64,000 nt of DNA from a virus (IMGVR_UViG_3300022927_001696:27581-91580), one strand, 5' to 3'. Shown: positions 1 through 64,000, counted from the stretch's first letter. Numbers and translations are program-made. Notes: a model not told the origin generated them from the sequence alone.

Positions 1-1
1 T

Positions 2-2296
2 GAAGATGTTCCCTTAAATTGGACTGCACATGAAGTTATTGTTACATTAAGAAAAGAATTTGATAGTGCAGAAATATCTTCAATACAACAGCAGATAGAA
101 GATAAGAAAACGTTTGGCATAGGATACATGTTGACTAATAAATCTACATCTCTTTTAGCAGATAAATGGTATGTAATAGAAAATGAAAATTTAGATAAAA
201 CAAGTCCATACAACGTATCCAATGCAGGTAGCACAACGGGCTCACCAATAGATGCAAGTTGGGTAGTATTATTTAATTACGTTCCAATAGATGATAATTC
301 ATACAAGTATGATGTATCCATACGAGGTGAACAATATATATTACAAAGTGCTAAAGATATAAAATTTTACAATATCAAAAATATAAAAGTTGTAGATTCT
401 AATAATAAAGCAAACACAGATAAAATTACAATCACAACATTTAACGATAAACCCGGCAGTAGTGAAGTATTTAGATGGTACGACAGTACAGGTAATGGAA
501 TAGGCGATACCTGGTACAGTGAAGAGACTGCTTCTACTACCACACCAAACGGATTTGAAATAAATCTTCCATTAAGAACAAGAAATCAAAAATGGTATGA
601 TGTTGAATTTAACTGGGTCAGTAACTTTGGTATTTTAAAATCAGAGGGAGAATCCAATGTTTCAGTAATTACTGCAGAAAATGAATTTGTTCATGAAGCA
701 GTAGTTCCAATTAATACATATTTTGATAACGGTGATGCGGCCGCACTTACACCAAATGTAACTATAGCAAATAATTTGGGTAGAGTAAATAGAGTACCTA
801 GTAACGTAAATGTATCATTTAATAATGCAACATTCGGCTTTAATATTTTAGATGGGTCTGGAAATGTACATTACAAGCAATTAAATTCAGGCACAGGAGT
901 CGTAGAATTTTATCAGGCAAATAATAGTGGAGCCACAAAAAGTTTTGGTACAGACGGAGCAACTTATAATGCTAGTGCAGATGGGCATTTAATATTAACA
1001 AGCTCAAATACATCCACACAATCAGGCACATTCCTATATGAAGATTTAGATAATAATAATCATCTTTTAGCACAAGATTCTACTGCTGTAACAAGTACAG
1101 ATAAAATAAGATTGGATTATGTGAATTATAAAGAAAGATTAGACACTAACATAGATTGGCATATAGTTGATACTGTTATAGAAGATGACGGGTATACCGA
1201 TAGATCTAAAGTTGTAATTGCGCCTTTTGATACTGATAACGATTTGATCCCGGATAGACCGTTACAATTTTATGAATTTGTTGATACTGATGACTTAGTT
1301 TATTTAGAAAAGTATTTAGACTTTGATGGATATAGTTATGATGTCCCATCTTCAGGAAAAATTTTAGATTACCGTAAAGAAACATCTGTTAATTTGGACA
1401 TAGGTTCAGATACAATAAGTCCTACATCTTATAGTGACCCAGTTGATATAAGTGGTAATGATATAGCATGGATATCAGTTGTAAGTAAATCTATATTAGA
1501 GAATGATTTAGAAAATGACAGTGGTAAACTTTCCGGTACAAAGGTATATGTTGAATCAGAAGATAAGGTATATTTACTCACACCTAATAGTACGAATACA
1601 TTACAGATTAGAGGTGTTGTAACAACAGATTGTTCTGTAAGAAACGGTAGAGGGGAAACACAAAATACACTTTTACCAGTTAAAAATGCAATGATATTTA
1701 AATGGAATCATGTTGCTGATAAGAATGTAAGAATTGATCCCAGTATCAGCAATGTTGTAGAATTTTTAGTATTGACTGAAACATATAATGACCAAGTACA
1801 AAGATACCTAAATGTTCCTGGAACTGCCTTCCCATTACCTCCAACAAGTAATGATCTTGCATTAGAATTTGCAGATCTAAATCAATTTAAAACAGCAAGT
1901 GATATACTAGTATATAAAAGCGGTAAATTTAAACTTTTATTTGGCAACGATGCAAGTCCGGAATTGAGGGCAAAATTCAGAGTAGTAAAATTAAACGAAA
2001 GATTTAGTGATAACGAAATTAAAACAAGAATTATTAGAGCATTTAATAGATATTTTGACCCAACAAATTGGAACTTTGGGGAAACATTTTATTTTACAGA
2101 ATTAAGTTCTTTTATACACAGTCAATTAGGCAATAGTATAGGTAGTATAGTGATTTTACCTAAAAACACAAATGGAAAATTTGGTGATCTATTTTCAGTA
2201 AAAGCAGAATCAGATGAAATATTCTTAAGTACTGCAAGTGTATCTGATATAGAGGTAGTTAGTAAAATTACAGAACAAACATTAAAAACTAGATAA
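2..2296 (+). CDS. Baseplate wedge-like virion protein, 5'-truncated (frame is open from the window start)
   Basis: No stop upstream of the track's Met at 128 (EDVPLNWTAHEV...). The C-terminus (RIDPSISN, NWNFGETFYFTELSSFIH) resembles wedge proteins of large myoviruses. Lies directly upstream of the giant virion gene. Confidence 0.65.
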   Translation, partial: EDVPLNWTAHEVIVTLRKEFDSAEISSIQQQIEDKKTFGIGYMLTNKSTSLLADKWYVIENENLDKTSPYNVSNAGSTTGSPIDASWVVLFNYVPIDDNSYKYDVSIRGEQYILQSAKDIKFYNIKNIKVVDSNNKANTDKITITTFNDKPGSSEVFRWYDSTGNGIGDTWYSEETASTTTPNGFEINLPLRTRNQKWYDVEFNWVSNFGILKSEGESNVSVITAENEFVHEAVVPINTYFDNGDAAALTPNVTIANNLGRVNRVPSNVNVSFNNATFGFNILDGSGNVHYKQLNSGTGVVEFYQANNSGATKSFGTDGATYNASADGHLILTSSNTSTQSGTFLYEDLDNNNHLLAQDSTAVTSTDKIRLDYVNYKERLDTNIDWHIVDTVIEDDGYTDRSKVVIAPFDTDNDLIPDRPLQFYEFVDTDDLVYLEKYLDFDGYSYDVPSSGKILDYRKETSVNLDIGSDTISPTSYSDPVDISGNDIAWISVVSKSILENDLENDSGKLSGTKVYVESEDKVYLLTPNSTNTLQIRGVVTTDCSVRNGRGETQNTLLPVKNAMIFKWNHVADKNVRIDPSISNVVEFLVLTETYNDQVQRYLNVPGTAFPLPPTSNDLALEFADLNQFKTASDILVYKSGKFKLLFGNDASPELRAKFRVVKLNERFSDNEIKTRIIRAFNRYFDPTNWNFGETFYFTELSSFIHSQLGNSIGSIVILPKNTNGKFGDLFSVKAESDEIFLSTASVSDIEVVSKITEQTLKTR

Positions 2297-5200
2297 TGGC
2301 AGATAAATTATATAAAAAGTTACCAGGCATATTGCAAACGGATGCTACAAAGAATTTCTTTGAAAGTACTGTTGAGCAACTCTTCAGTAAAGCAAATGTT
2401 GAAGTAATTAATGGTTATGTAGGGTTACAGAAGTCTGAAGACTTCGATGTAACATCTGAGTTTTTAAGAGAAAGCACAGCAACTAGACAGCATTATGCAT
2501 TAAGTCCTGCTGTTAATACTTTAAATGCAAATACCAATGCCAGTGAAAATTTAATCTTTTATGATGAATTTTTAGATACTTTAAAAATTAGCGGAACTGG
2601 AACCAATAATCAAAATAGATTATTCAGTACAGATTATTCTTCTTTCCTTCCCCCTATAGATATTGATAAATTTGTAAATTATCAAGAGTACTATTGGAGT
2701 TATGATCAACTACCAGCAATAAGAATTTCTGGAACAGTAGATAATCCTATAGATATAGATGTTGATATTATTGGTAAGAAGTCATTCACATCAGCAAATG
2801 GAGTAACATTAAAATCAGGAATGAGAATTATTTTTGATGGTGGATATGTTATACCAGACACCAAAACTACAGCAGAATATTTTGTTGAAGGTGTAGGTGA
2901 ATCTATAAGACTTATAGATACAAACGAAAATGTAGAAACACCTTTTAGTACAGCAACATTAACAGCCTGGGATAGTACAGCATTCACAAGCAATGACAGT
3001 AATGTGGCATACACAGCCGGTAACATATCCTCTGTAAGTGTTTTACATGGCGGCATTGGTTATATAAACCCTGTGGTAAATTTTATAGGTGCTAATACAT
3101 CTGTTGCTTCTGCAACTGCAAATGTGGATAGCAATGGCACAATAACTGATGTTACTGTAACTAATACAGGTGCAAATTATAGTGCACCAATAAGCATACA
3201 AATATCCAGTGATTCCATTACAACAAGTTTAAATTCAGGAAATACCTTTGTAACATTTTTAAATGAAAGTATTTCACAAATTGCACCTTACAAAACAATT
3301 TCTGTAGATAGCACAAACGATGTTTTTGCTGGACAACAATTTAGCCTTAATGGCGAAACAAGAACTATAGAAACTGTTAATAATGCTAGTATTATTGCTA
3401 TAGAAAACATAACAAATCAATATGATTCCAGCAGAACTCCAGGTAGTTACATAGTAAATGGCACCGGCGGTTCAGGGTCTGGACAAGAATTTATTGTAGA
3501 TGTTGTTGGGCCTAATGCAGACGGTATTGTTGAAGTCGGAAATATCACATTAAGCAACACTTCCTTAACCGGTACTTATCCAATAGATTTTAGGTCTGCT
3601 AATAGTTTTATAGCAGGTAATATAACAACATCAGGCACTGGAGCAAATGCATATTTGTCCGTAACTTTGGACGGCAGTGGCGGTGCAGATATTGAGATTG
3701 TTAAGGGCGGAGATGGTTTTGTAGAAAATGATACTATTACTATAAGTGATAATATTTTAGGTGGCGACGGTTCAGGTAATTTAGAGCTCGTTGTAACAGA
3801 TGCCGTTACTGTAGGCGATACATTTATTTCACTTAGCAAGAACGGAAGCGGTTTTATTGTTGGTGAAACAATAACTATATCAGACAGTGATTTAGGCGGC
3901 GGCGGCGCAAACAACATTACTTTTGATATTGCAAGAATAGGTGATACTCTCACTATAGACGAAGAAATATATTTAGACGGCACAAGTAACGGGAATATAC
4001 AATTCATTGCTAACGGATTCCAAGCAAGTATACAAACAAGTATGTTTACACTTACATCTGATGCAAATGGTTCTGTAATTACCGGTGTTTCCTCTATGGC
4101 ACTTGCCGGAGTTAATCCAACAACAGGAGAATTTTATCTTAGTGGTAGTCCAGATTTTGGAGAGAATTTCGGTTGGGACATAGATACAGATAGTAGCCTG
4201 CCTGGTGGCGACGCGGAAGGCGATATTCCATGGGGAGGTAGAACAACTCAAGATAATCCAGATTATAATGTAGTAGGAAGAGGGGCATCTAATAAAAATA
4301 TCTGGAGTAGGGTAAACTTCTGGCATCATGCAGATAACTTTAAAGAAGCAGGAGTTGATTTACCTGGTGCAGAATATAGAGCTAAAAGACCAATTATAGA
4401 ATTTGATTATTCACTGGAAATGTTTAATACAGGAAACCTATCAGTTGGTGTCGTAAATATTGTAAGTAACGAATTTAATAAAGATGATATAGACGGAACC
4501 ATATCATCCGATACTGTTGATAATAGTCCATTAAGTATTGGTTCAACTATTATTTTCCCTAACGACGAAGACAACAAAAAGTACATATTTAAAATTGCCC
4601 ATGTAGGCGGAAATATCAGTTTATCAAAAATAGGCGACCCTATAAGTAATCCTGCAGATACAGAAGAAGGAGATGTAGGATTTATTCCTTTTGAATTTAA
4701 AGAAGGAATGCAAGTCAGTATAAAATCAGGCGCTTTGGGTAGAGGATTAGAATATCACTTTAAAGACAATAACTTAATTTTAGCACAGTCTAAATTAAAA
4801 TTACATCAGGCGCCTTTATTTAATTTATATAATGATGAAGGAAAATATTTAGGTGACGAGCTTTTATTTAAAGACAATACCTTTATTGGCTCTAAGATTT
4901 TTAATTACAAAGTCGGCACAGGCACAGATGATAGTGTTTTAAATTTCCCATTGTCATATAAACCTTTTACGAACTCTGCAGAAATAGAATTTCAAAACTT
5001 TTTAGAAACAGATAGAACAAATTATATTCCAGTAGGCTCAACATCAGAAACAGAAATTTTAGGTTACTATTATTTTAAATCTCAAAACGGGTACAGTAAT
5101 AACTGGAAGATGTCTGATTCTAAATCTATGCAAGATATTAAAACTTTTTATCATATAAACACTTTTAATATAAAGGATAAAAATACAAAATATTATATAG

Positions 5201-8200
5201 GATGTGAACCTAATATAAATTCTAATAAGTCTAGTGGGTATGACATAACCGTATTAAAAAATGGTAGTGAAATAAAAGATTACACTTACGTTGGAAAAGG
5301 ATTTATAGAATTTAATACTTTCAATTTTATTGCAAAAGATATTATAGAAATAATTGCTAAATCAGATTCTGGATTATTAAATGAAAGATCTATAAGTAAG
5401 TATACCATACCTTTAAACTGGTCTAGAAATCCGGATAAAGAAAATATAACATTTATTTCAGAACCAGAGTATTTAGGTCATTTTACCAATTTAATCAAAG
5501 GGCAAGAAAATTTTACTGGTAAAGAATTAGAAGCAAATAATTTTAAAGATACAGCAAAAAATTCTAAATTTGCTACAGACATAGTAAATGTTGAAGAGGA
5601 TTTAAGATTAGGAGCATTTTTATTAGATGATCAACCACATAACTTATTAGAAGCAATAAGATTTAGTGAAAGAGAATACACTAAGTACAAAAATAGATTA
5701 AGATCTGAAGTAACAAAATATTATAATTCTTTTGATGTAAATGAATTTACAAATGAATATATACTTAATCAAGTTTTAAGAAATGTATTATCTCTTAATG
5801 TAGGTAATAATACTTTTCAACAAACATACATAGTTCCCTTTGGAGATAATTATATAGAAGAATCATTTATAATAAATGATGTATCTCTTAGATCCTTCAC
5901 AATGACTGCCTATGAGGATTTAAAAAAATTAGAAAACAGTTTATTGGTCTATAAGGCCAGAGGCAATACACATACTCTTTTAACAATAAATGAAGAATTC
6001 ACTCTAGATTCTTATAACCCTATTAAAATTACATTAAACGCCAATTTAGATATTGAATTGGGTGATATTATATATTTAAAACTTTATAATAAAGATAGAG
6101 ATAGTGCCCAATGCCCACCTACACCAAGTGCAATGGGTCTTTATCCTCTTACATTACCAGTAATAGAAAAGGATTATTCTTTTAAAGAAGAAATTAGTGT
6201 GCTAGTAGGACACGATGGTTCAAGAAGCACTCTATTTGGTGATGCCAGAGACGATATAATTTTAGAATTTGAAAAGCGAATTTATAACTCGGCAATTGAA
6301 GAACTAATTGATGCAAACAGTTTACCCTCATTAAATATTTTTAATGTAAGAGCCGGAGCATTTAGAAAAACAAATTTCAGTAATAGTGAGTGGTTTGATT
6401 TGTTATCAAATAATTTTTCTAATTGGGTTAAAGATAACAACGTTGATCCGGTAATAAATGAAACATATAATTCATCTGATAGTTGGACATGGAATTTTAG
6501 GGGTTCTCAAGATATACCTGGATACTGGAAGGGCTGGTATGAATACTATTACGATACAGTAAGACCTCATACTCACCCTTGGGAAATGTTAGGTTTTACA
6601 GAAAAACCAAGTTGGTGGGAAGATGAATATGGTACAGATTATACTTCCACAAACACAGCATTGTGGGACGATTTAGAATTAGGTATTATTAGAAAAGGCC
6701 CTAGAGCAAACTTTGTAGATAACTCTTATTTGGATTTACCAAACAACCCATGTGCTAGAATAGGATTACACGAAGTAATTCCTGTAGACGGTAATGGAAA
6801 TCTAATATCACCTTATGATATTATATCAACAGGTAGCACTACATTAAAAACTGTATGGACAAATGCATTTGTTTCAAATACATTCCCAGGAAATACCTTT
6901 ATAAACAATGATGGTAGTTTAAACAATGGTGTATCTGTATCTACAGATGCATCAAACATTTACATTTCTAGTAATGCATTAGTAAACCATGATATTAATC
7001 TTACTACAAATAATGTAGGACATAATGAATTAGAAGAACAAATTATTAGTTACAATGTTCCTTTTACATCGATATCAGGAATTAATTCAGTAACATCAAA
7101 TCCAACAAGTATGCCAGAATATGCAATAGGGGTATTAGTAAACGGTCTCCCATTATACAATGTTGCATCAGAAAACAGTTTTGATAACGGTAACACTTGG
7201 CATTATAATAAATTATTATCTGAACACAGTGATTTAGAATTAGGCCATACTGATGAAAAAGGCCTTTTACATTATTATAAACCTAGTCCACAAATTCTAG
7301 GACTAGATGAATGGAGTACTGACGAGCATTCCCCTATAGTAGGCTGGAGTTTTGATGGTATTCCAATTTATGGACCTTATGGGTATACAGAATATGAAGC
7401 AAATGGCGACATAAAAGATAATACAATAACAAATATAAAGAGTTGCTTTAGATTGAGACTTGGAGACAGGATTTCAACTCCAAAAGGTTCTTATTCAGGT
7501 TACTTTGTAGAAGATTACGAATATGACAGTTCAAAAGAAGGTATACCAGGACATACCGGTAGCACAAGTTCAGGTTCATATGGAAAATACAATTTAAGAT
7601 ATGGTATTACGCCTGACTCCAATGGAACGCCTATACAGTTTTATGTTGCTACACAAGATGATAACGGTGAACCGATGTTCCCTTATGCTATAGGTGGCGG
7701 AACAAAAACACATTCAGGTGGAAACTTAGTATATGCTAATAAGTATTATGGAACACCTCAAGATATTGCTAATAATACATTATCAAAAGGTTACGAAAAT
7801 ACAAGTGCTTCTGAAATTGTAAGAACAATAAAGACTATAGATAAATCAAGTACAGACAAAATCAATGATTCATGGATGCTTGGTGACGGTGCTCCAGTAG
7901 AAAATGCATGGAAGTATAGTTCATCTTATCCATTCGCTATTACTACAGCATTATTACTTGCAAAACCAGGTAGATTTGCAACAGTATTTGCTGATCCTAT
8001 TAATGTAGTAAGCACAAATATAGAAAAGAAAAGATTAATACATAAAAATACCAGAAGATCTTGGAATTTTAAAGATTCAACTGATTTTATAATACACGGT
8101 AGTAGAGATACTAACGGTAATTTCGTTTCAAATGTTGGTTATACACAATTTATAAAATCATATTTAAATTATCAAGGATTAGAAATACAAGATAATTTTA

Positions 8201-11200
8201 TTACACCATTAAAAACTTTAAATATTAAATTAGCTCACAGAATGAGTGGATTTATTGATAAAGATACATCAACTATAAGAACTGATCAATATAGTATAAC
8301 TGGTTCGGCAAGAACATTGATAATACCTTCAGAAAACATATCAATAAATGTTCACGACTCAGCATACAAATCAAGAAATTCCTATACAGGTGTAATTATA
8401 GAAAAAACAACTAATGGATATAAGGTACGTGGATACGATAGAAGTTTTAGTTACTTTACAATATTAGAAAGTGATAAAAATGGTAGAAAACAAAGTATAG
8501 AAAGAGGCGGAAAGCCGGCTGACTATGTAAATTGGTCAACTAATCAGTCATTTAATATTAATACCATTGTAAAATATTTAAATTCTTATTATATTGCTAA
8601 AGAAAAGATACCAGCAAGTTCAAGTTTTGATAAATCACTGTGGTCAAGGCTACCTTCACTACCACAAATCGGAGGTGCTAAAGGTGTCTATTACAATGAT
8701 ACAACAGGATTTACAAGACGTGTAAATTATGATACAGAATACACAAAAGTTGAAGATTTATTTGATTTTCTTGTAAGTTTAGGAAGATATCAAAAATCTT
8801 TAGGTTATTCTTTTGGAGAATATGATACAACTATTAATGATGTGAGAGATTGGGCATATGCGGCGGAACAATTCTTGTTTTGGACAACAGGCGGCTGGGA
8901 AATAGGTAATACTTTAGAATTATCTCCTATGGCATCCAATGTGATATTTGAAAACAGTAATGAATTTGTCGCAAAAATTAATAAAACTGATAAAAACCAG
9001 TTTACTTTGTTAGATCAAGACGGAATATCTATATCTCCAGAAGAATGTAGTATTTTAAGAGAAAATAATAGAATAGAAATTACTCCACCACAGGGTAGAC
9101 AAATTTATAGTGCTGTATTATTCACAAAACAAATAGAACATGCTCTTATTCTTGATAATTTAACAGATTTCAATGATACCATTTACAATCCTTTACTAAA
9201 CCAACGACAGGATAGGATTTTTATTAAAGGTAAAAGAACATTAGGTTGGACAGGTCGTTTCAGTAGTGAAGGATACATTATAGACAATGATGAATTACAA
9301 CCTAATTTAGATAATGCTACAAGCACAATGGGAGACTACCATACATTAGGGTTTATACCTGTAGACAAAGACGTTTATGTGGCATCCAGAAGCCTTTTTG
9401 GATTTGAAGAAAGATCTTACCTAACAGATTTAGATATTTTAGATGACGATCAATTTGAATTCTATAAAGGTATGCTACAAAGCAAAGGAACAGAACAAAG
9501 TTTATCACAAATAGGAAGAAGTAGCTCTATTGTACAAGGTAATATTACAGTTTACAGCGAATGGGCCTTAAAAACAGGTGAATTTGGTGATACAGATAAC
9601 GAACAAAGTTTAGAATTAAAAATAGACAAGCACGAAATAGTTCAAGACCCACAATTATTTAAATTAGAATTTCCTGAAGACGTTACCGGTATAATTAAAG
9701 ATATTGTAATCACAGAAAACAAACACAAGTATTTTACAGTACCTTCTTTGGAAATATCTGCTCCAACTAAAGAACCCAAAGAACAGGCAACTGGATTAGT
9801 TACTTTAGATAGTGACGGACTTATATCAAGTGCAACAATCACAAATCAAGGTAGTGGATACGAATCTCAAAACGCAGTTGCAAAAGTCTTAGCAGGAAAT
9901 ATTAATATATCAGATACTTCTACTACATTTAATGTTGTAATTGCACAAAGTTCTGCATTATTTGGTAATGCTAACGTAGTAGGCATATCAGATATAGAAA
10001 TTACAGACCATTTTGGTAATGGATTAGCAACAAACATAGATTTAAGTTCAGCAAACACAGTGATAGACGTTGTATCAGCAATTAATTCTAATAGCATAAC
10101 AAATGCTAATGTTGTAGCAAGTTCAGTGGAATCATTTGATGCAAACAGCAATACAAACTTTTATGTATTACAGATAACTGGTAATGATTTTACATTAGGC
10201 GGTTCAGGGTTAGCAAATCTTAATATTTCTGCAGATAGATATCAACCTAAACAAAGATATGCTATAGATATCGCTGGAAATACTTCAGCAGGAACAGGAG
10301 CAACAGTTAAATCAGATATATTGGTATATGTTGATAACACTTTGGTTAGCGATACAAATTACGACTATGATGCAGGTGATAGATGGCAATTCACAACATC
10401 ATCTATAATTACATCTGGAAATTATGTACAAAATATATTAAATCCAGGTTCTGAAAATAGTAGTTCTGCATTTGCATCTGAAAATATTGTACAAGTAGAT
10501 GGAAAATATCCTTTTGTAGATGTTTATGTAAATGGCACCAAATTAATTAATGATACAAATCAAACACAATACACAGTTGCCAATACTACAGCAATCACTT
10601 TCCCTGATGTTACAAATTTACCAGGTGGAAAACTTGATACAAACGCAAATGTTTATATTGTGGAACGTGCAACTATAGATTTTGTTGATGCTTATCAGGG
10701 AGACATACCAGGAAAAACTTTACAAATAAAAGTACAAACAAATGATGGTATTGCCTTTACATATGGTGAGAAAAAATTATATACTATAACACCAGATATA
10801 GAAAACGACGAAATTATTACTATAGATATAGACGATAACGAAAGATTCCTTAAGAAACCAACAGGTGCTAGAAACAATAAATTATGGCCTACTACAGATA
10901 AAGTAAATTATTCAGGTGTAACAGATTCTGATTATAGAACTTTACCAAATGCAGGTTACGTTTTAAGGAATAATGTAGATTATCAGGCATATGGTGTTAC
11001 AGATATAGCAGATCTTTTTGATGTAGATAGATTATATAAACCAAGTAAAGACAATTTAATACATGTGGCATCAAGTGAGAACAAAGACTGGAACGTTTAT
11101 AAATTAAGACAGCCAGCCAATAGCCAAATATCTTTTGTAGAACAAGAGTCCATAGATGATACAGCATATCTATATTCTACATCTAATTTATTTGATTATA

Positions 11201-14200
11201 TAGACAGTAATCAATTGCAACAAAACGATTTATCAAGGTATTTAGATTATACATTAGTACTTAAAAAGGCAAGTATTACAGATAATTTAGTGATTTGGAC
11301 AAACCAAGAAATAGTTGATAAAAAATCTGCAATGATTAGAGATTTTGGTGCAGTATCAATGTTGCAAACAGATGTTGCGAACGTAACTCCTATTGATACA
11401 TATGAGATAACAAATATTCAACCTGCTTTTTCACAAGTAATTGAAGGGACAGCAACAGTAGGTGCAAACAGCACGGTTACAATCAGTTATAATCAGGGTG
11501 CACCTAAAAACGGAGACACAGTACGAATAGTTGATATTGCTGACAACAATCAAACATATAGTGCAAGTAATATAGCTCACAAAGATTACGGTAATGCAAA
11601 TTTATCACCGGCACCCGGAGCAGTCTATAATAGTTATATAGAGGTAACAACAAATGCGGCAAATGTTGCTAACATTGTGCCTAATGTGACGCCTATTGTT
11701 TTAACATTTACAGCAAGTGATTATGATGGTATAGAAGTTGAAGACGTTTTAGAAGAAGTATTTGTTGCGAGTAATGTAAATTATGCAACAGGCGTATTTG
11801 AAATTTACAGTGATTCTGCTGTGTTCCAATCCTATTTTGGAAATGTTGTTCATGATTCCAATATAGCAAATATAACCAGTAATATAACAAATATAAGTTA
11901 TTCAATAGATGTTAAGAGTAACATTCATAATCAACAGTATACAATAAGTAATGTAAATCCAAATACAAGTACATTTACAATTACTGATGCAAATGTAACG
12001 GCAAATGTTTCACCAGTTATGGTTGAATATTTCAATAAATGTGAACTTACCGTATTGCCTATTATTGCAAATACAACATCATATATGCACAATTTAGTTG
12101 CAGGAGATGTAATTAAAGTATTCTCACAAAATATCAGAGGGTACTATAACGTTCAAGATGCAACAGAAGAAACTATTATTATTAATGCACCTTATGATTC
12201 AAATATTGCAACAACAGGAAAAATTGTTACAAGAGGTGTAGATATACAAACAACCGAAAATCATAATTTAGATAAAAAGTATAAAGGCAAACGTGTTATG
12301 ATACACAATGCTGATAATAGATATTATAACCAGTTGTACAGAGTATTCAATGTTATTAATGACAATACAATAAGAAACACAGAAATATTTGCATACGAGC
12401 CAGGAAGAACCGAATTAGCAAATGCAATACTTACAACATTAGATCACGATGTTGTTAAGTTAAATAATACATCTATTAAAATAGACAACATATCCAGTGT
12501 TCCTGCTATTGCTGACAGTATAAACAGAACGCAGGCTATTAAACGTGGGTTTACAACCAGTGATACATTTGGATTAAGTTTCCCAATGCTTACAAATGGT
12601 ATAAACAATCTAGGATTTAAACCTTTAGATTTTGCAGGTAGTATACCATATGTCACAAAATTTGATAGAGAGGCATTAGAAAATTTAACCATAGCAGGTG
12701 GGTTACCCATAGCAAAAAATTTACCAACTGGATTTACTAAAGATAAAATAAAAGGAAATGAATTAGAGCCTAAGTATATAGAAGCAATGTCTAATAGAGA
12801 TGGAGTTCCTAATCCGATGACTTTTATAGAACCAATCGGGCAAGGTTCTAACTTACCATACAATCAACCAGTACAGAGTCCTATCAACAAAACTATTGAT
12901 CCTTATGTAGCACCAATTGATTATGGAGAGCCTAAGGATACAATTACAGAAGTTCCTGTTGTGAGAATAACAAGTAAAGGTGCTTCAAGACTAAAAGGTG
13001 TAGATAAAAATCCTAGATTAGGTAACAGGGAATCAGTTGTTTTGACAGCAAGTGTATTAGATACAGCACCAAAGAAAAAATGTGGTCCTGAGTGTTCAAC
13101 AACAAGATACAGAGGAACAAGAAAAGAAGATATTAAAAATCCAGTAACATGCTATACTGGTGTTAATCTTACAAACTGGTCAGTGAACGGAACAGGTAAA
13201 GACGAAAGAAAATGGCAGTCACAATACAGTGGATTTTATACCCCAACTAATTCTGCAGGTGGTAGTCATGGTAGTATTGGTTTCCAGAAACTTGGTATTG
13301 CTGGTGCAAAAACATGGAGTGATAACGGTTCTACAGAAAGTATCACAATGTCATTTACAAGTCAGACAAAAGGCACAATATACATACATGTATATCAAAT
13401 AGGTAAAGGAAGTTACGATACAACAAGAATAAGTGTTTCAGGAGGTTCACCTGATTTTAGCACTTTACCAGGTTATTATATTGGTAAGACTGAAAGAGCA
13501 GGTAGTGTATCACGAAATATAATTAGACTTGATTTAGAAGAAGGCGACAATATCACAATAACTGGAACTGTTAAGGGAGGTAGTAATCACTGGCATGCAT
13601 TAGAATTCCATTTATCCGCTCAAGAAGCCTCATTTAATACTTGTAGTCTTCCTCAAACAGACAATTCTGAAGAAGACTCTGGAACAGCAAATGCCCCATC
13701 TACTGGAACAGATACAGATAGAAAAATATTTGCTTATCATTATAAGGGTACTAGTATAGGATTCCCCTGGTGGTCTCAAGAAGAAAAAAGAAATCATTTT
13801 TATTCAGTTTCAAATGGCGGACTAGGCACATTGTTATTTGAACACTGGGGCATAGCAGATGCCATAAATATTTTCCAAGGTAAAGACAAAGAAAGTTGTA
13901 GTAAGTTAATCGGGCAATCTAATTTAGATCAATTAAGAAAATTAACAAGTGAAGAAAAAGATCTACTTATGCATGGGGAATTATGGGGGACAAGTGGTAC
14001 CAAAAATTTTGCTAAGACTCCATTTACAGGCGGTTTTAAACCTGAAAGTAAAATCACAAATAAAAGATACGGAGTAAGAGGTTCAGGTGCTTTAGACTTT
14101 AATATAAATGAAGAAGACGGAAAATTCTTGAGGATAGAAGTATACGGAAAAAGCACTTATCATCATGCATTACAACTACCAAATGTAATTCCAGATATAG

Positions 14201-17200
14201 AAAATCCAGGAGTAGATCCTAATCCAGTTGTAGGCTGTGGGGAGGAAACACCAATACCTGAAGATGCTAATTCAAGTGTTGTTGCAACACCTTCTGCAGG
14301 TGCTAAGACATCGATTATTACTCCTGTGGGCAACCCAACAACCAAGAAACAATCAGGCGGTAATAGAAGAAGAGGCGGTGGCGGCGGACACACCAGATAC
14401 GATCAGACTGCATATAAGTATCATCATAACTTTGCAGGCTTTAACAGGCCGTCTATGGCAGGATTTAGTTTTATACCAAGTATATTTAGAAAATCTGTAA
14501 AACTCACGTATGCACCAGACTATGGTGTTCCAGTTTCACTTGCTAGTGGTAGGTATGTAAATAATAATGTACAAAAAATCAGCGGTGGTTTCATATTACC
14601 ATTAGCAAAAAGATTGACATCTAATATTCCTTTAGATAGTGCACCATTAAGATCCTTAGACTCAAAAGAATTACCATTCTATAACATTTTAGATGCAAAT
14701 CAAAGATCATTTGAAAGAGGCGGTATTTTCTATAACTTTGATCCTAGAAAAATTAGTTCAAGTATTAAATTATCTGATGGCACATTCGTAGATGTTTCTA
14801 CAGGAACAACAATTACAGCAGGTGAAGACGGACAACTATTAGGATTAAATCTTGGTGAAACATTTAATTATGATAATCCATATGATGGTTCTAATCCATT
14901 TGGTCCACCGTCAGAAGACCCAGTTGACGTAATACCACCAGAAGAAATTTCTGAAGGTCCTGTACAACCTGATGAGTACAACGAAAATATGATTATTACT
15001 ATTACACCTACAGACGGTGACAATAATCCTGCAGGGCCCGAAGTTCCGGTGCCAATTTTTAGACCTACACCAGGATATACAATTGATTTAAATGGTATTA
15101 ATTTGAATCCAGAAGATGATTTCTTTATTAATGGAACTAGAATTGCTCCAAAAGGAAACAGTCAAGCAGATATTTTAAAATCTATAAATTGTGTAGCCGT
15201 AACAGGATTTGAAGCAAAACCTATAGGCAAAGATAAAATAAGGATCAGTAGTTGTACCAATGCTCCACTTACAGTAAAAGAAGGTTGCTCAGGTGGTGTA
15301 TACAAAGAAGTACTTGACTTCCATATTGTTAAATCATTTGTTAATTCTGAAGTAAGTAATACATCAGTACTAGCACCTGGTACAATATCTGGTAATACTA
15401 ATCCTGTAAATAATTACACACACTTAGATACTGATGGTGGTGTTATTGGAACATCCACATCAACAACATCAGGTGCAACAGGACAAGGTTATGTATTATC
15501 AAGTAAATCAGTAACCACAGGTGGTGACGGATATAGTGTTGGTGACAGACTTAGATTAATAGGTGGTACACCTATTACAGATCCGTTTGCAGGAATCAAA
15601 GAAATCTGTATTCCATTTGCAGGTGCCGGTTATAGTGCACCAGAAAATATTGTAATTACAATTGGAGATGGTACAACCCCAGGTAGAAATGCCACAGTTA
15701 AGGGTGTTGTATTTGATAAAAATAATGGTATTAAAAATGTACTTATAGATAATCCAGGAAGTGAATACGATGCAAATAGACCCCCAGTAGTAAATATAAT
15801 TGATACAGGTTCTGCACAATCACCTATAGTATGGGCAAGTAATATTTCAGTATCAACTAATGATTTAATTCAATACAACGTAAAGGGTGTAGAGTTTATT
15901 ACAAATATTAGCTCAGCAGATGCCGACAGAACACCAGGAACATACGATGTTGATACTTACAATTACAGTTTACAAGGTGGTAGAAAAGCAGAGTTTAGGA
16001 TTACTATAGATGAAACAGGCGCCGCAACAGTAGATATTTTAGCACCTGGAATAGATTTCCCTCAAATTGCAGGTGGTACGTTTACTATTGATGCCGGCGA
16101 TATAGGCGGCACAGGAAGTGATTTAACTTTTGATCTCTTTAGTGTAGGAACTGTAGACATAAAATATTATCAAGCATACGGTAATTTTACAACCGGTAAT
16201 ACATTTGATACAAATAATTTAAGAGAAAGAAACTCTTGGACTGCGCCTGTTCCTGCTAAATTAGAAGCAGTAGTGGCAGAAAACGGAAGAATACCTCGTG
16301 TTGCTAAATTTGAAGTAACAAGTACAGACTACTTAGGAGGTATAACATCTCTAAGAATAATAGACAGAGGTATATACAAAGTCTTCCCAAGTGACTTAAC
16401 AAATGGTTTACCTATAGAATACGATCACGTTAATTTAGGTGATGAAACCGGTACTGACGATGACGGAAACTTTACACAAGGTTCAGGTTTAGGTGAATTT
16501 GATCCTCAAACATTAATAGCTCTGGAATCACCTGGAGCATACGATCCTATATTAGGATTGACCGGAGGTGGTAGAGGTGCCAAAGTATTCTTAACTTCAA
16601 GAGAAATTCCAGACTGTAGTCAGAAAGGTGGAATGAAAGATGCTCTAGGCTTACCAGACTTAATAAACGATCTTAATCCTTTAGACGACTTAGCAAGTGC
16701 TATACAAGGAGCAATAGGCGATTACGGTTACGATCCAGATGATTTAAACGTTGACGTTGATGATATAAATGATTATATAGGCAGACTGAAAATAAATGCA
16801 CCTGGTTTCGAAGGCATTAATATAGATGAGTTGACACCAGGATTATTAACAAAATTAGGTATACCGCCTGGAGATTATAATGTTGCATCACTTTGTATAC
16901 AAGCAGTTGTAGAAACATCTGAAGCAGACGACAATCCGGTTGTAATTGATAAATTAACAGAATTTGCAGATAACTTAGGTTTAGGAATCAGTAAAGAAGG
17001 ACCTGTAGAAGTGTTAAAACTACTTTGTGTTGACACTATAGGTACAGGCCCAGGCTCACAGACACCTGGTCTTACAGATGACAATAATGTTAATATACCG
17101 GGTGCTTCATCTAATATAAATGGTGACGGTTCAAACGGGCAAGACAGAAATAGTATTTTTGGAGACGGTAAAGTTACATTTGCAAAAGACTTATATCAAT

Positions 17201-20200
17201 ATGAATTAAGAACAGTAACAGGTAAACCTGTAAATTTATTAGGTTCCGAAATAAGTCAGGAAACTGAAGTATTATATTTAGAAAGTCAAAGATACGATAC
17301 AGAAACTGCATTAGTTTCTGCAAATAATATAAACATTTCTAACAATATAAACACATTTGGTAATGTATGGATAGACGACTATCAAGGAAATGGTTGGGCA
17401 TATTTAGAAAACGGCGATATAATTCTACAACAAGAAGATATGGTTGATCCTAAATTTATAAACAACTCATTATTATATGATTCAGAAACAGGAAATAAAA
17501 AATATGACTTAGATCTGTGGGACCCATTTAAAGGTGTATTACCGGGCTTTATAGATAAAGAAATTGATTTTATAAGTGAAAATGATCCTGTAGTTTATAC
17601 ATCTTCCAGAAGTAAATTTGATGACAATTATGTTGGTAAGGTCTGGTGGGATACAAGTACACTAAGATATAATTGGTACGAACAAGGTACTAATAGACAA
17701 AGGTGGCTAAATTGGGGTAGCACGTTTCCTGGTAGTGTTATATCATTATATGAATGGGTTAAGAGTGATGTACCACCAACAGGCTTTGCTGGAGAAGGAA
17801 CACCTAAATCTACAGACGGTTATATAGAAAGAAAAGAAAGAAACCCTGTAACAAATATTCTACAACCTGTATATTACTACTGGGTAAGAAATTTAAAAGT
17901 TTTAAGTGATGAAGTTGCAAATAGATTAGGAAGAAATTACGATACATACACTCTAGCAACATATATTTCAGACCCAATAAATTACGGTTTAAATTTAATT
18001 AGTTTTATAAGTGATAATTCATTTGTTGCAAGTAACTTGTCACAAATAATAGATGATGAAGGAGATCATTTACAGATTAATTTCAGTAGAAGTTTAAATA
18101 ACGATGGTAAAAAACATGCCTCATGGGCATTAACTAGAGAAGGCGACAATAATAGTATTATACCAGAAGATCACAGTAGAAAATTAATAGATAGTATTTG
18201 TGAAAAAGATTCTGCAGGAAATATTGTACCGGACCCATTATTAAGTAAAGTACAAAAATATGGTATAAACTTTAGACCAAGACAAACAATGTTTAAAAAT
18301 GCTAAGGAAAGCAGAAGAGAACTTGTAAAATATTTAAACAATCTATTTGCTGGATTGAAATTAAATACAGAATATTCGAATTGGGATTCAACATTACCTG
18401 TAGAAAGAAAATATATTAAAACTGTTGATTGGTTTGAAACTAAAGGACGAGATAATGTTTCTAAACAACCTATTTATTTCGATGAAACATTTAAACCAAT
18501 TTACAAAGTTAATAGTACAGCAGAACTCTTTACATTAAATAATATAGATGACGGTACAGTTGTTCAAGTACAAGGTAGTGCTTCTGAAAGAGCAAAATTA
18601 TACATTTACGATGGCATTAGTAAGACATTTGGATTAATATCAATAAAAGCAGAAACAATACAAATAGATTCTTCTGCATATACCGATGATATAAACGACC
18701 AATTAGCAAATGAGTTACGTTTATTATTGCAATTATTAAAAGACAATGTTTTAAAAGAAAAAGTTATTTGGAATAATTTATTCTTTACAATGTTAAACTA
18801 TGCAATGGTAGAACAACCACAACTTGATTGGGCATTTAAAACAAGTTATGTATATGTCGAAAAAGAAGAAGAAGACCTTAAAGAATTTAAAGGATTTAAA
18901 CCTGATAACTTTGAAAAAGTTATAGAATATATGAATGAGGTAAAACCGTTTACAGCAAAAATCAGAGAATATAAAGACGGCAAGTCTACACCAATAGAAT
19001 ATATTAAAGATCAAATGATAAGTGATTTTGATAAACCGCCTTATGTAGATTTTGTAAATGGAACTGTAAGAATTTTAGATGAAAATAATGCAGACGATGT
19101 AACAATTTTAAGTACAGATACACAATATACAAAATACAATTCAATTTCTAATAAAGGCAGTAGCCCGATTAGACAAGGCAATACGACTATTGTATTTGAT
19201 AGAACAAACTGGAAACCCACACAATTTGAGTGGCAACCCTCAGTAGAATCCGCCAATTTAAGCATTGCCAAAAACTTAGCATGGTTGAGTTCAAGTTCAA
19301 ATACAATAGTTTCAGCCAACACAAATGTAAGGGCAGTTGATAGATTATTTAAATATGATAGTGGTATACAATCATCATTTAGTACAGGAATGCAAAATTA
19401 TTTAACAACAGAGTTAAGTTATTCTAGTGATGACGCAAGTAATATTGCAAATATAAATTTACAAAATAATATATTTAATGCTATAGAAACAGGATATCTT
19501 GATAGTACATTATCAGATCTTAAACTTAAAGTTGGAGGCAATTTTAAAGGTGAAATATTAGATGCAAATGTATTTACAAAGGTAGTTCCTGGCTCCGATG
19601 GCACCTCAGATTTGCAGACAACTTTTGCATATGATACATTAACATATGATTCTGATAGTTTAGATATAAATGCTGATGTTGTAAATTACTCAGGAACTTT
19701 CGATGATAGTGAAGTAGATTTCAGAAGATTTGATGCTACATATCAAGGTTTTGACGGCGTGACATTTAATAAAATGTTATATGGTGAAGAAAGACCGGAA
19801 GAATTGATTTCAATAGACCCACTAGAGAATTTTATAATTACAGTTACAACAAGTGGGTATGAAAACGGTGATGCAACTGGTAATCTAATTACTGCAAATG
19901 CAAGTACAGTAATATATAGAACACACAAAGACATGTTTGGTGGCGCAGAATTTATTAGAGTTAATTTATCAAATGCTACTACTTTATCAGCAAATGTTGA
20001 TGTAAAAGATGATGTTATAAGTGTTGTTGATGCTTCGATATTACCAAAACCTAGAGAAAATACACCAGGTGTTATTTGGATTGAATCAGAAAGAATTGAA
20101 TACAAATCTAGAGATACTGTTAATAATATAATAACTGAATTGACGAGAGGAACAAGAGGAACTACACCACAAAGTTGGATCATAACAGATGAGTCTGGTG

Positions 20201-34929: not shown

Positions 34930-35686
34930 TCTTTATGCTAATATAGGCATGGCACATGAATGTGATTGGCAAGTCATAAAATCTAGAGTGGTAGCGGCGG
35001 CACAATGTAATGCTGATGCCGTAATAATGACAAAATCTACACCTAGAATTGCAATTCCGGAACACAAAAAATATGTTAGTATTCAGAGCAAGTGGGGAAA
35101 TTTACCATATATAGAAGTCGCCGAGCAAAGTGAAGTTGATGACCTTGTAATTAAAAAATTTAATGATTTAACAAAACAAATTGGTATACCGGTAATATGG
35201 TGTATAACAGATTCAGAAGCAGGAGGTTGGGTAAAAGAAAAAACAGATTGCCAGCATGTTAAAATACATTACGATTTTAAAAATGATAAAGAAACAATAG
35301 ATTATGCTATTAACAATTTTAAACAAATTATCTTATCAGGAGATAGTATTTGGAAGGATTACTGTATTAAATTATGTAAAAACGTAAGAGATCGCCAAAA
35401 CTTCTCTTTTTACCATACAACAAGTAAATTCCCTTCTCAAATAGAAGAACTAAATTTAAATCATATGAGAACATTTACTAAATTATCAGATTTCAAAATA
35501 GGATATGAAGGCAGATGTAATGGTATTTTTCCAGATTGTTCTGTAGTATTTAAAGATGTAGATTTTATAGAAAAATATTTAGGTGATAATGATACAGAAA
35601 ATTCTGTATTATTGAATCATCAAGAATTTTATGATTTTTTTGTAAATATGAATCAATTAGAAGTTGCAAATGGCAAAAAAGATTAG
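34922..35686 (+). CDS. NeuB/N-acetylneuraminate synthase-like protein, degenerate
   Basis: YANIGMAH...AAAQCNADAV, HTTSKFP...ELNL, IGYEG and FIEKY align with NeuB motifs but carry substitutions. Confidence 0.65.
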   Translation: MIDLYANIGMAHECDWQVIKSRVVAAAQCNADAVIMTKSTPRIAIPEHKKYVSIQSKWGNLPYIEVAEQSEVDDLVIKKFNDLTKQIGIPVIWCITDSEAGGWVKEKTDCQHVKIHYDFKNDKETIDYAINNFKQIILSGDSIWKDYCIKLCKNVRDRQNFSFYHTTSKFPSQIEELNLNHMRTFTKLSDFKIGYEGRCNGIFPDCSVVFKDVDFIEKYLGDNDTENSVLLNHQEFYDFFVNMNQLEVANGKKD

Positions 35687-56144: not shown

Positions 56145-57251
56145 TTATACTATGTACTTAATATATTTTTTACTAAATGTATCCCTAAGTTCCTTATCAA
56201 GATCAGTTCTCACATTAAATTTAATGTTATAATCTTTCATTATAGTTCTAAATAAGAACACAACCATTTCTGGTTCAAAGTTATCAAAACTAAATCTTAT
56301 AACATTATTAAGAGACTTAACAAAATCTTTATCTAGACCTTTATCCAAATACTTTTCATTTAGCTCGTATGCAATTCCTACAACCAAACTATATTTTGCA
56401 CTAAGCTCAGAACTAACCTTGTTATCAAGTTTCTTTGCTTTTCCGTCTAAAATATCGCTTGGATTAGGAAGATGTTTAGCAACTTTTCTGTGTTCTACAA
56501 ATTTTATTGACATTCCTTCACCTATAGCACCTGCAATTTCTGCCTTTTGTTCAAAACTTTCAGCAGTATCAAAGCCTGATGCACCAAGCATTTCACTAAC
56601 AAAGGTCCAACTTCTTGGTGTAGCAAAAGCCTGCGAACTAGATTTTGGATCAAAATCAAACAAGTCGCCTTTGCTGTAAGTTAAGTAACCTACAACATCA
56701 GGGTGTACGTTGTTATTAACAGCCCATTGTTGCCAATCATCAAAATTAACATCCATATTAATGTGTCTAAATCTGTTAGCCAATGGGGCAGGCATTCTAA
56801 ATGTAACACCTCTATCAGTCTCTCTGTTACCTGCGGCAACTATTCTGACGTTCTCTGGTAGTCTGTATTGCCCTACTCTTCTGTTTAATACTAGTTGATA
56901 CGCCGCGGCCTGCACACTTGGAGGTGCTGAATTAAGCTCATCTAAAAATAAAACAACATTATCATACTGACTAGCGAATTCTTCACTAGGAAGATCTGCT
57001 GGGGGCGACCACTCCATAGTATTTGTTTCTGGATTTCTAAAAGGATATCCTCTTAGATCGGTTGGCTCTAATAATGCTAAACGCATATCAATCATTGTAG
57101 CATTACCTAAATCACCACTATTAACAATAGACTCAACAAGTTCGGATTTTCCAATTCCTGGAGGCCCCCAAACAAATATTGGTCTATTTACTTTAAATGA
57201 TCTTAACAGAATTGGTTTAACCTGTGTTGATCTGACTTTTAATGTTTCCAT
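56145..57251 (-). CDS. AAA+ ATPase (MoxR/dynein-related type)
   Basis: Walker A GPPGIGKS, Walker B LFLDE, AAGN, PLANRF. Confidence 0.88.
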   Translation of the reverse strand: METLKVRSTQVKPILLRSFKVNRPIFVWGPPGIGKSELVESIVNSGDLGNATMIDMRLALLEPTDLRGYPFRNPETNTMEWSPPADLPSEEFASQYDNVVLFLDELNSAPPSVQAAAYQLVLNRRVGQYRLPENVRIVAAGNRETDRGVTFRMPAPLANRFRHINMDVNFDDWQQWAVNNNVHPDVVGYLTYSKGDLFDFDPKSSSQAFATPRSWTFVSEMLGASGFDTAESFEQKAEIAGAIGEGMSIKFVEHRKVAKHLPNPSDILDGKAKKLDNKVSSELSAKYSLVVGIAYELNEKYLDKGLDKDFVKSLNNVIRFSFDNFEPEMVVFLFRTIMKDYNIKFNVRTDLDKELRDTFSKKYIKYIV

Positions 57252-58046: not shown

Positions 58047-58069
58047 ATGTGTAATCTCCTATACACATA

Positions 58070-58078: not shown

Positions 58079-58099
58079 TTTTTTTATTAAAACAGTTGT

Positions 58100-58549
58100 T
58101 TATTTTCCTGGTAATCCTGCTTCAATAAAAGCACCAATTGTTTCCATGTCTTTATCACTAAGCATTCCTGCCTGTGCCCACATAGTGCTACTCATTGCAC
58201 CAACTTGTTCTTTGTTTTTGTATTGTACAAGTCTTTGAACAATGTATGCTTTGTCTTTGCCTTGTAAACTTGGGAAAGGTCCCATACCGCCACCGTCTTG
58301 TCCGTGACATGCGGCACAACCTGCCCATAAACTTCTTATGGAACTAAACTCGTCCAAGTTAGCCAACTCCTTCTTTCTTTGTTCTATTTCAACAACTGTA
58401 CCGTTAAGAGCCACATATTCTTCGTAGCATTCTCCTGTACACGACCCCTGACTTGAATATCCTGTATATTCTAAATCTGGGTAAATTTTAAAACCAAAGA
58501 ACAATGCTATTGCCATTGTTCCTAATAATGCCATTCCTAATTCTTTCAT
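58100..58549 (-). CDS. Membrane-anchored class I c-type cytochrome (c553/c4-like)
   Basis: N-terminal TM, heme motif CAACH, PSLQGK...YIVQRLVQYK, Met ligand region STMWAQA. Confidence 0.85.
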   Translation of the reverse strand: MKELGMALLGTMAIALFFGFKIYPDLEYTGYSSQGSCTGECYEEYVALNGTVVEIEQRKKELANLDEFSSIRSLWAGCAACHGQDGGGMGPFPSLQGKDKAYIVQRLVQYKNKEQVGAMSSTMWAQAGMLSDKDMETIGAFIEAGLPGK

Positions 58550-58994: not shown

Positions 58995-59014
58995 AACTGT
59001 ATTTATATTTTTAT

Positions 59015-62311: not shown

Positions 62312-62519
62312 TATTACAGACTCCTTCTTTATAAGTTCCTTCCTCTACAATCGTTAAAGTATTTTCTATTACTACACGATACTCAGCATATTTATTTTCA
62401 CATTCAGCAAATACTTTTTGTTTAACTTCTTCTATAGAATTTCCTATAGCATGAGGGTACCAACCCATTTCGTAGGCTCCCCATCCTTTTATAAAAATTT
62501 GATATTGTTTACCCTTCAT
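62304..62519 (-). CDS. Hypothetical protein
   Basis: ATG overlaps the QueE stop. Confidence 0.55.
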   Translation of the reverse strand: MKGKQYQIFIKGWGAYEMGWYPHAIGNSIEEVKQKVFAECENKYAEYRVVIENTLTIVEEGTYKEGVCNNG

Positions 62520-63403
62520 TAAGTCCCCCATGCATTTCCAAATAAACTAATATGTAATCTAGGACTAAACTTATATCCAGTCTTCATACATATCTCAGCA
62601 ACATTTTTTTCAGTTAATGTTTGTTGCTCTAATGTAGCACCCTCAGGCATACAGTAAATAGAATCAAGTTTAACACCTGACTCTTTATAACTATCAACAA
62701 ACATATCAACTTCATTAAAACATTCCTCATCTCTAACAACAAACTTTGTATATAGATAACTATTATGAACAGAATTCATTGATAATAATGACTTTGGTAT
62801 TAGAGCATCATCAGTCTTCTCACCACTAATACTTAATTTAGGAGATGTACTCCATGTAACATGTAAATTAGGTTGTGTTAAGTTAAAATATGTTATTAGA
62901 TCATTTTTAATATCTTGCGTACCATTTGTTTCAAATGTTACATTTTTTAACCCTACATTCTTACACTTATCTAAAAGTGCTGGCCAAACACGTTGCCACC
63001 CTAGTAGCGGTTCACCACCTGTGATCACCAAGTGTATGTCTTCACCGTGTTGGCCAGTGAAAGTACCAGTTGGTAGCAATGATGTGATGTGATCAAACAC
63101 TTCATCTACAGATCGAGTAAACTGTAAATGTTTATACTTCATTGCCCAACTGGCACTTGAATCACACCCAATGGGTGTGACGGGTAAATCTTCTATGCTT
63201 TTATAAGCATCAGGATGGTTTTTATCTGCTTTAGGATCTAACATATAAGGCATTTGATCAGTTGCAATTAAATTTTCTCTAGGTTGTCCGAACCCAGCAC
63301 ATTCAAAATTACAACCAAATACTCTTAAGAAGATACTAGGCACACCAACAAATCTGCCTTCTCCTTGTACTGAGTAAAATGCTTCGCTATATCTTAATTT
63401 CAT
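62519..63403 (-). CDS. queE: 7-carboxy-7-deazaguanine synthase QueE-like radical SAM
   Basis: EAFYSVQGEG, FLRVFGCNFEC...GCDS, VITGGEP, ETNGT, SPKL, PRLH. Confidence 0.88.
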   Translation of the reverse strand: MKLRYSEAFYSVQGEGRFVGVPSIFLRVFGCNFECAGFGQPRENLIATDQMPYMLDPKADKNHPDAYKSIEDLPVTPIGCDSSASWAMKYKHLQFTRSVDEVFDHITSLLPTGTFTGQHGEDIHLVITGGEPLLGWQRVWPALLDKCKNVGLKNVTFETNGTQDIKNDLITYFNLTQPNLHVTWSTSPKLSISGEKTDDALIPKSLLSMNSVHNSYLYTKFVVRDEECFNEVDMFVDSYKESGVKLDSIYCMPEGATLEQQTLTEKNVAEICMKTGYKFSPRLHISLFGNAWGT

Positions 63404-63896
63404 CTAATTCTACTTGTAATAAATTGTATAAATCTTCCATTGATATTTGTCCATCTATCATACTTTCAACAGCATCAAAAACAATGGTATGTAGCTCAGA
63501 GTTTTCAAACTGTCTATGTCCGTTATGTATATCTTCATAACATTCATATGCTAAATTTAAAAATCCTACATCAAATAATTTATTAAAATCTTCTAAATTA
63601 TCATTAATGACTTTACCAAATTGAACTATTTTTAAAAATAGGTTATCAGTAATGGAAACTGTTTGTATTTGTATGTCCTCATTAGTTCCTATATTTTTAC
63701 ATTTTAACCTGTCTCTAGAAGTAATACTATCAAGGTCTGCAATCGCATCTAAACATTCAAATACTTCTTCTTTACTAATTGGATATTTTTTACAAATAAC
63801 TTCCAACTCGTTACGTTCTACAATACAGTCAGTAATTTCCCTAATAGGAACACTAAATTTACCTACAACAAGATACCCGTTTCTATTATTAATCAT
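63387..63896 (-). CDS. Hypothetical protein (DUF433-like N-terminus)
   Basis: VPIREI...EVICKKYPISKEEVFECL. Confidence 0.45.
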   Translation of the reverse strand: MINNRNGYLVVGKFSVPIREITDCIVERNELEVICKKYPISKEEVFECLDAIADLDSITSRDRLKCKNIGTNEDIQIQTVSITDNLFLKIVQFGKVINDNLEDFNKLFDVGFLNLAYECYEDIHNGHRQFENSELHTIVFDAVESMIDGQISMEDLYNLLQVELDEIKI

Positions 63897-63897
63897 A

Positions 63898-63999
63898 TTA
63901 TTTACTTGCGTATTCTTGTTGTAATTTTATATTATCAAAAAACTCTTTCTTTGTACTTGAATCATCAAAGAAAGAACCTTCTAATACAGTTGTTTGTGT
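63898..63999 (-). CDS. folE: 3' end of GTP cyclohydrolase I (FolE), truncated by the window edge
   Basis: TQTTVLEGSFFDDSSTKKEFFDNIKLQQEYASK* matches the FolE C-terminal pattern; two genes from queE. Confidence 0.65.
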   Translation of the reverse strand, partial: TQTTVLEGSFFDDSSTKKEFFDNIKLQQEYASK

Positions 64000-64000
64000 T

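Follow-up and report, generated by a model that had tools for sequence, protein, structure and literature searches.

The stretch of DNA considered here is a window of 64,000 nucleotides, comprising bases 27,581-91,580 of a single 91,580-bp virus record in IMG/VR (G000:C1:27581-91580), and the subject is the five-letter word GCWGC (GCAGC or GCTGC), which is missing from it. The whole record, called the contig below, has a G+C content of 33% and carries T4-type virion and replication genes, including those for a major head protein, a portal and a prohead protease, together with gp46/47-like nuclease subunits and baseplate hub and wedge proteins. Its portal protein is 52-54% identical to those of the Pseudomonas jumbo phage PA5oct and its relatives, and 43-50% identical to those of Agrobacterium phage Atu_ph07, Xanthomonas phage XaC1 and Asteriusvirus-like phages. 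CheckV assigns the record a completeness of 26%, which implies a full genome of about 350 kb. The contig is part of a virulent, uncultured T4-superfamily jumbo myovirus of coastal and salt-marsh water, and nearly identical DNA is present in 19 metagenome studies of salt-marsh, marine and seawater samples, in 20 sequencing runs altogether. A 7-kb piece of the window, used as a DNA query, had no match in a phage collection, and the window yielded no tRNA genes. At its end, the window holds a short cluster with a GTP cyclohydrolase I (FolE) gene and a QueE-like radical S-adenosylmethionine (SAM) gene (Table 1).

Neither GCAGC nor GCTGC occurs in the window or elsewhere in the contig, in either orientation, which extends what an earlier note on this DNA had seen by eye. 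The number of sites expected in the contig is 49-70 under Markov models of order 0-3 (64 with the order-3 model), and synonymous codon shuffling within its genes gives 70.8 ± 4.3, the lowest of 300 shuffles still having 62. For genes lying wholly inside the window, the same shuffle expects 35.1 ± 3.3 sites against 0 observed. GCSGC is 3.5-fold enriched in the contig (99-102 observed against 28 expected), which is a compensating change for the lost GCWGC. The count of GCWGC beside GCSGC that the earlier note had suggested thus comes to none against 64-71 expected, with a matching rise of the alternative word. Loss of a shorter motif, which that note had named as a possible cause, is ruled out because the four-letter sub-words are common in the contig (GCAG 276, CAGC 165, GCTG 132 and CTGC 259) and the order-3 model still expects 64 sites. 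The observed/expected ratio of GCWGC itself is 0. The deamination products GTWGC and GCWGT stand at 0.98-1.15 of expectation, GCSGC being the sole enriched neighbour. Selection therefore acts on the DNA word, and not through mutation bias or codon usage. A scan of further words, going beyond the earlier note, revealed a second strong depletion, that of AGCT, with 42 copies in the contig against about 204 expected.

The mode of removal is visible at Ala-Ala junctions. GCA and GCT together account for 82-83% of all Ala codons, as had been supposed from reading the sequence, and yet neither of them opens any Ala-Ala pair: the first codon is GCG (17) or GCC (20) at the 37 junctions in genes of the window, and GCG (47) or GCC (33) at the 80 junctions of the contig. 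The rule drawn by eye in the earlier note is therefore exact, and its examples at 737, 47011, 16021 and 34994, in the CAACH of a cytochrome c and in the QAAAY of an ATPase, read as described (Table 1). The remaining two frames are purged as well, since AGC and TGC never follow NGC, and CAG and CTG never stand between G and C. Removal is silent throughout: the 80 Ala-Ala pairs are retained with GCG or GCC, and in the other frames the changes fall on codons for Ser, Cys, Gln and Leu.

The same purge extends across a clade. A search of IMG/VR with the portal gene gave 80 loci, at identities of 75-92%. GCWGC is missing from 67 of them, except for a single site in one lineage, with 3-38 sites expected per purged locus; the other 13 have normal counts. 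After de-duplication, the purged relatives amount to 801 kb with 6 GCWGC against 773 expected, or to a 745-kb set with 3 sites; two of the six are a single identical site in L055 and L057, which are two copies of one population. The purged relatives span two different genome regions, and one of them, G004, has 1 GCWGC site. The GCWGC-normal rows fall into two groups in the portal tree, distinct from each other and nested within purged rows, and therefore the state of GCWGC has changed at least twice, with two nested lineages regaining normal counts. Whole records bear this out. One of these lineages is represented by G001, a 122-kb record that is collinear with the contig and holds 249 GCWGC sites. 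The other, represented by G003 (74 kb; loci L170-L173, plus L072/L074), has a normal number of 149, and is still low in AGCT (86 copies, 67% of them G-flanked) and GCGC (26 copies), so that the purges are independent of one another. Both nested lineages retain the gene order of the clade.

Beyond GCWGC, the contig is also purged of AGCT (0.2 of expectation), GCGC, CGCG and GTTAAC, save for copies that contain or adjoin GA or GGC. The degree of AGCT depletion varies among the 67 purged relatives, with complete loss in four subclades and about 0.2-0.3 of expectation in six. CTAG is absent from two subclades (0 against 80 and 0 against 70 expected; L024-L027), one of which keeps AGCT near normal; GTTAAC falls to between 0 and 0.07 of expectation in three subclades, and GCGC to 0.17 in one. 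Other six-letter words are avoided by a GCWGC-normal lineage. When the CTAG-free subclades were searched for a CTAG enzyme resembling MjaI, the matches did not rise above noise. Mosaics of avoided short palindromes are known from virulent phages (Rusinov et al. 2018, PMC6286503), and the mosaic of words lost from subclade to subclade here reads as that recognised footprint of Type II restriction pressure.

The copies that survive follow a strict flank rule. All 42 AGCT sites of the contig are GAGCT or AGCTC, all 13 GCGC sites are GGCGC or GCGCC, and all 10 CGCG sites have GA or GGC within or adjoining them (for example CGCGGC, CGCGA and TCGCGA). When sites in the contig genes were divided according to whether they contain or adjoin a GA or GGC step, and each class was compared with the synonymous shuffle, the class without such a step was empty for AGCT (0 observed against 116.6 expected), GCGC (0 against 18.0) and CGCG (0 against 5.2), and nearly so for GTTAAC (1 against 19.9). 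In the class with GA or GGC, the corresponding values were 38 against 87.7, 11 against 26.9, 10 against 16.8 and 2 against 2.1, and nine control words lay near 1 in both classes. The rule is repeated in the 745 kb of de-duplicated relatives, in which shielded and unshielded copies number 332 and 0 for AGCT (background 723:931), 152 and 0 for GCGC (background 268:159), and 110 and 6 for CGCG. Three CGCG survivors of the contig fit the GA rule alone and not a simple rule of doubled end bases. Codon constraint cannot cause this pattern, because all such sites could be removed silently. GCWGC itself is erased regardless of its flanks, with no GGCWGC or GCWGCC in the contig against about 22-24 expected, and the enzyme that cuts GCWGC would thus not be stopped by the proposed shield.

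The gene cluster at the end of the window offers a possible source of such a shield. The FolE fragment, cut by the contig end, is identical in translation to the C-terminus of a complete FolE (L083:35-640; PF01227, E 8.6e-37) on a contig that belongs to the same population and comes from a different sample, in which the QueE-like gene is 100% identical. The QueE-like gene is a candidate for the 7-carboxy-7-deazaguanine synthase of a preQ0-type pathway; it covers the full profile of phrog_2076, the family into which the QueE of phage CAjan also falls. NCBIfam QueE models match only its first approximately 35 residues, below their cut-offs, and its BLASTP alignment with CAjan QueE covers 37 amino acids at 46% identity. 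The conserved 169-amino-acid gene between the two has no Pfam, PHROG or NCBIfam match. Its assignment as a QueD T-fold protein was considered and rejected: the AlphaFold2 model is confident (pLDDT 91) and finds no match in the PDB by Foldseek. In one purged relative, a phosphoribosyltransferase gene adjoins FolE, a 167-amino-acid gene and the QueE-like gene, possibly as a further member of their pathway. Many marine T4-like phages about 170 kb in size (L097-L162) that show no purge of GCWGC or AGCT have the QueE-like gene as well, at 68-75% identity. The one near-complete record among these non-purging phages, G005 (170 kb, 99% complete), has no recognisable DpdA. In a tblastn search with CAjan DpdA, 242 records matched, and the best 60 of them included no T4-like or jumbo phage.

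Phage CAjan provides the closest comparison. It replaces G by dPreQ0 at GA and GGC, which stops enzymes whose recognition sequence includes GA or GGC and leaves GC, GT and GGT sites cuttable (PMC7544227); in phage iggy, the modification is placed at GA alone (PMC10484667). As in CAjan, the rescuing contexts here are exactly GA and GGC, and FolE is accompanied by a QueE-like gene that shares its PHROG with CAjan QueE. The two cases differ in that DpdA, QueC and QueD were not found here and the modification is read from the footprint in the sequence alone. Additionally, the protecting G here often lies one base outside the site, and the pattern is carried by a T4-superfamily jumbo myovirus, unlike CAjan, which is a siphovirus of the Queuovirinae. 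The chances that the phage DNA carries a GA/GGC guanine modification of dPreQ0 type may be put at about even.

A lead to the host comes from a gene outside the window, encoding an inorganic pyrophosphatase (PF00719, E 3e-55), which is absent from syntenic relatives. The protein is 76-82% identical to those of Candidatus Thioglobus, Ruthia and related Thioglobaceae, and at most 65% identical to those of other Gammaproteobacteria; in its tree, the phage copy belongs to a well-supported set with all 20 Thioglobaceae rows. It was probably acquired recently from a host. The phage gene contains none of the purged words, and the bacterial genes average 0.5 GCWGC, 1.8 AGCT and 1.25 GCGC. Members of the Thioglobaceae (the SUP05/Arctic96BD-19 group) are therefore proposed tentatively as hosts. 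The earlier note had expected the motif to help identify the host; the motif alone pointed to none, and the lead came from the pyrophosphatase.

Judging from their genomes, Thioglobaceae can be rich in Type II systems. Methylases of the 5-methylcytosine (m5C) type occur in 37 of 121 sampled Thioglobaceae genomes, with up to 9 in each, and in complete genomes with many methylases, several palindromes are themselves strongly avoided. For instance, observed and expected counts in one of them are 0 and 19 for GTTAAC, 4 and 89 for ACGT, 13 and 82 for GCGC, 31 and 141 for GATC, and 66 and 105 for GCWGC. The methylase-rich genomes G060, G081 and G058 (loci L304-L315) have lost several palindromes almost entirely, for example ACGT at 2/185 and 4/89, GTTAAC at 0/19, GATATC at 1/33 and GATC at 19/190. 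In published metagenome methylomes, GCWGC methylation was reported only in Chloroflexi, with no link to this phage. A literature search on restriction-site avoidance in jumbo phages, on Thioglobus jumbo phages and on this clade returned nothing relevant.

Taken as a whole, these results seem best explained, with a likelihood somewhat above even, by restriction-site avoidance under a host-borne nuclease that recognises GCWGC, together with the proposed layer of GA/GGC modification. Every GCAGC and GCTGC has been removed by synonymous recoding in a jumbo phage lineage, and the selecting agent would be a sequence-specific double-strand DNA endonuclease with the specificity of TseI/ApeKI or BbvI, most probably encoded by the hosts. 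Guanines at GA and GGC steps would be modified with the help of FolE and the QueE-like protein. A modified base in or beside a site would block cutters of AGCT, GCGC or CGCG type, and only the unprotected copies would be erased. GCWGC contains no internal GA, and its cutter is apparently unaffected by a flanking GGC, so that this word would be erased in every context.

The earlier note had proposed strong selection against a host system recognising GCWGC, of TseI/ApeKI or BbvI type, acting by restriction or methylation. The part concerning selection by a nuclease that reads the double-stranded palindrome is well supported, given the total loss by synonymous change in three frames and on both strands, its extent across the clade and the parallel, lineage-specific loss of other Type II palindromes; the host is the probable owner of the enzyme. 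The two enzyme types cannot be told apart, as both would remove both orientations. Methylation by itself would exert no selection against sites, and neither GTWGC nor GCWGT is enriched. No methylases of PF00145 (m5C) or PF01555 (N4/N6) were found in the contig or in the records of four large relatives.

Several observations weigh against this explanation. With respect to the modification, GGCWGC is not spared, so a GA/GGC shield cannot be general, and the contrast between unpurged GA-containing palindromes and other palindromes, although in the right direction, is not significant (Fisher p = 0.11). The QueE-like gene is also present in many phages that show no purge. DpdA (PF01702, phrog_887) was not found in the contig or in the records of 29 relatives, all but one of which are fragments of 5-49%; the phrog_887 control matched in no genome, hence this profile does not establish the absence of DpdA. 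QueC and QueD were likewise not found in the mostly fragmentary records of the clade, apart from one weak match to QueC phrog_1550 in one purged relative. With respect to the host, the lead consists of a single gene. Eleven free-living Thioglobus-like metagenome-assembled genomes (MAGs) have no PF00145 m5C methylase and few N4/N6 methylases, and in the six of them that were sampled, GCWGC is near normal. Five methylase-rich Thioglobaceae genomes are only mildly depleted of GCWGC, at 0.63-0.86 of expectation, so that none of these 11 sampled genomes bears a clear GCWGC signature, and none of the host candidates yielded an enzyme or methylase specific for GCWGC.

A different owner of the nuclease can also be imagined. 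The phage itself might encode a lone GCWGC endonuclease without a methylase, which would destroy the DNA of the host or of competitors, its own genome being free of sites. This is rather unlikely in our view, but it would fit the fact that the GCWGC purge is absolute, independent of flanks and present in every subclade, whereas other words vary and tolerate shielded copies. The methylase-poor free-living MAGs of the candidate host group, which do not avoid GCWGC, point the same way, and about 74% of the phage genome lies outside the contig. However, searches of the contig open reading frames with Pfam, PHROGs and NCBIfam found no restriction-enzyme-like gene, and no nuclease stands out when syntenic gene content is compared with that of the non-purged G001. 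A small SegE-like GIY-YIG nuclease, tried as the discriminating gene, was rejected, being equally conserved in purged and non-purged relatives. Host restriction, moreover, explains the mosaic of words equally well. A combined version, in which a lone GCWGC nuclease would lie in the remaining three quarters of the genome and a separate GA/GGC guanine modification, made without a recognisable DpdA, would act against other enzymes of the hosts, is also doubtful.

Readings that involve no nuclease fare worse. That GCWGC is a reserved signal, such as a packaging, replication or regulatory site excluded from the rest of the genome, is improbable: the contig covers only 26% of the genome, and one lineage does keep the single identical site described above, but the 91.6 kb of the contig are free of sites, and the 745-801 kb of relatives, which span two genome regions, have only 3-6. 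The other purged words behave as restriction targets, and the two nested lineages carry hundreds of GCWGC with unchanged gene order. A mutational or compositional cause, whether deamination of methylated sites, codon usage or loss of a shorter word, has very little probability. AGC and GCT are indeed about half as frequent as GCA and TGC, yet order-2 and order-3 Markov models and codon-usage-preserving shuffles still expect 64-71 sites, the deamination products remain near expectation with only GCSGC enriched, and complete absence over a diverse clade needs selection. An artefact of sequencing or assembly can practically be dismissed, since counts are normal in sister lineages that come from data sets of this kind, and the same 9 kb recurs nearly word for word in the 20 runs mentioned above.

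In relation to known systems, restriction-site avoidance is a textbook strategy, and the present case is not unique in kind. As in the non-temperate double-stranded DNA phages surveyed for short-palindrome avoidance (Rusinov et al. 2018, PMC6286503), a palindrome of Type II character has been lost completely or nearly so by silent change, and relatives avoid different words. Unlike in those phages, the purge spans a whole clade of uncultured jumbo phages, with 3-6 sites against approximately 770 expected, and the survivors of several words depend strictly on their flanks, which the survey does not describe. TseI and ApeKI recognise G^CWGC (PMC3643589, PMC8557920), BbvI cuts GCAGC at 8/12, and GCWGC methylases are known (PMC3643589, PMC8557920, PMC6329791). 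The likeness of these enzymes to the present case lies in the word alone, their recognition sequence being the one that is missing here.

The present case, a very clean one of its kind, contributes the quantified picture across the clade, with its two reversions, and the rule of GA/GGC survivors measured against proper null models. It further contributes the partial preQ0-type gene cluster at the window end and a first lead to the host. A near-absolute, clade-wide purge in abundant uncultured marine jumbo phages makes the set of purged words a heritable fingerprint, which could link phage lineages to hosts or enzymes. Moreover, the survivor rule allows a DNA modification and its target motif to be predicted from sequence alone in a phage that was never cultured, and the flank-independent loss of GCWGC predicts an enzyme insensitive to that putative modification, whether it belongs to the host or to the phage.

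Table 1. Positions of the features discussed, in window coordinates unless another record is named.
Feature	Position	Strand	Details
Ala-Ala-Ala encoded as GCG GCC GCA	737..745	+	surrounding sequence GGTGATGCGGCCGCACTTACA
Single 6,025-amino-acid open reading frame	2296-20373	+	baseplate block
Sugar and radical SAM gene block	24167-52869		
Ala-Ala-Ala encoded as GCG GCG GCA	34994..35002	+	
AAA-type ATPase gene	56145..57251	-	phrog_1297, E 7e-97; QAAAY = CAG GCC GCG GCG TAT
Phage cytochrome c gene	58100..58549	-	PF00034, E 2.4e-7; CAACH = TGT GCC GCA TGT CAC
QueE-like radical SAM gene	62519..63403	-	294 amino acids; phrog_2076, E 1.3e-52, full profile
Conserved gene between FolE and the QueE-like gene	63387..63896	-	169 amino acids; syntenic in relatives
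GTP cyclohydrolase I (FolE) gene, 3' end	63898..63999	-	last 33 codons and stop; cut by contig end
Inorganic pyrophosphatase gene, outside the window	L001:15245-15769 (contig coordinates)	-	PF00719
Phosphoribosyltransferase gene in a purged relative	L085:8138-8629	+	adjoins FolE, 167-amino-acid gene and QueE-like gene

Other features of the window accompany these genes. The very long open reading frame of the baseplate block lies between a gp6-like wedge gene and fibre genes, and relatives cover 41-49% of it at 45% identity. The large block of sugar and radical SAM genes includes a UDP-glucose dehydrogenase, a carbamoyltransferase, several radical SAM paralogues and a protein of 1,280 amino acids, and it is mostly shared with the non-purged relative G001. 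Homologues of the cytochrome c occur in a few relatives, both purged and non-purged.

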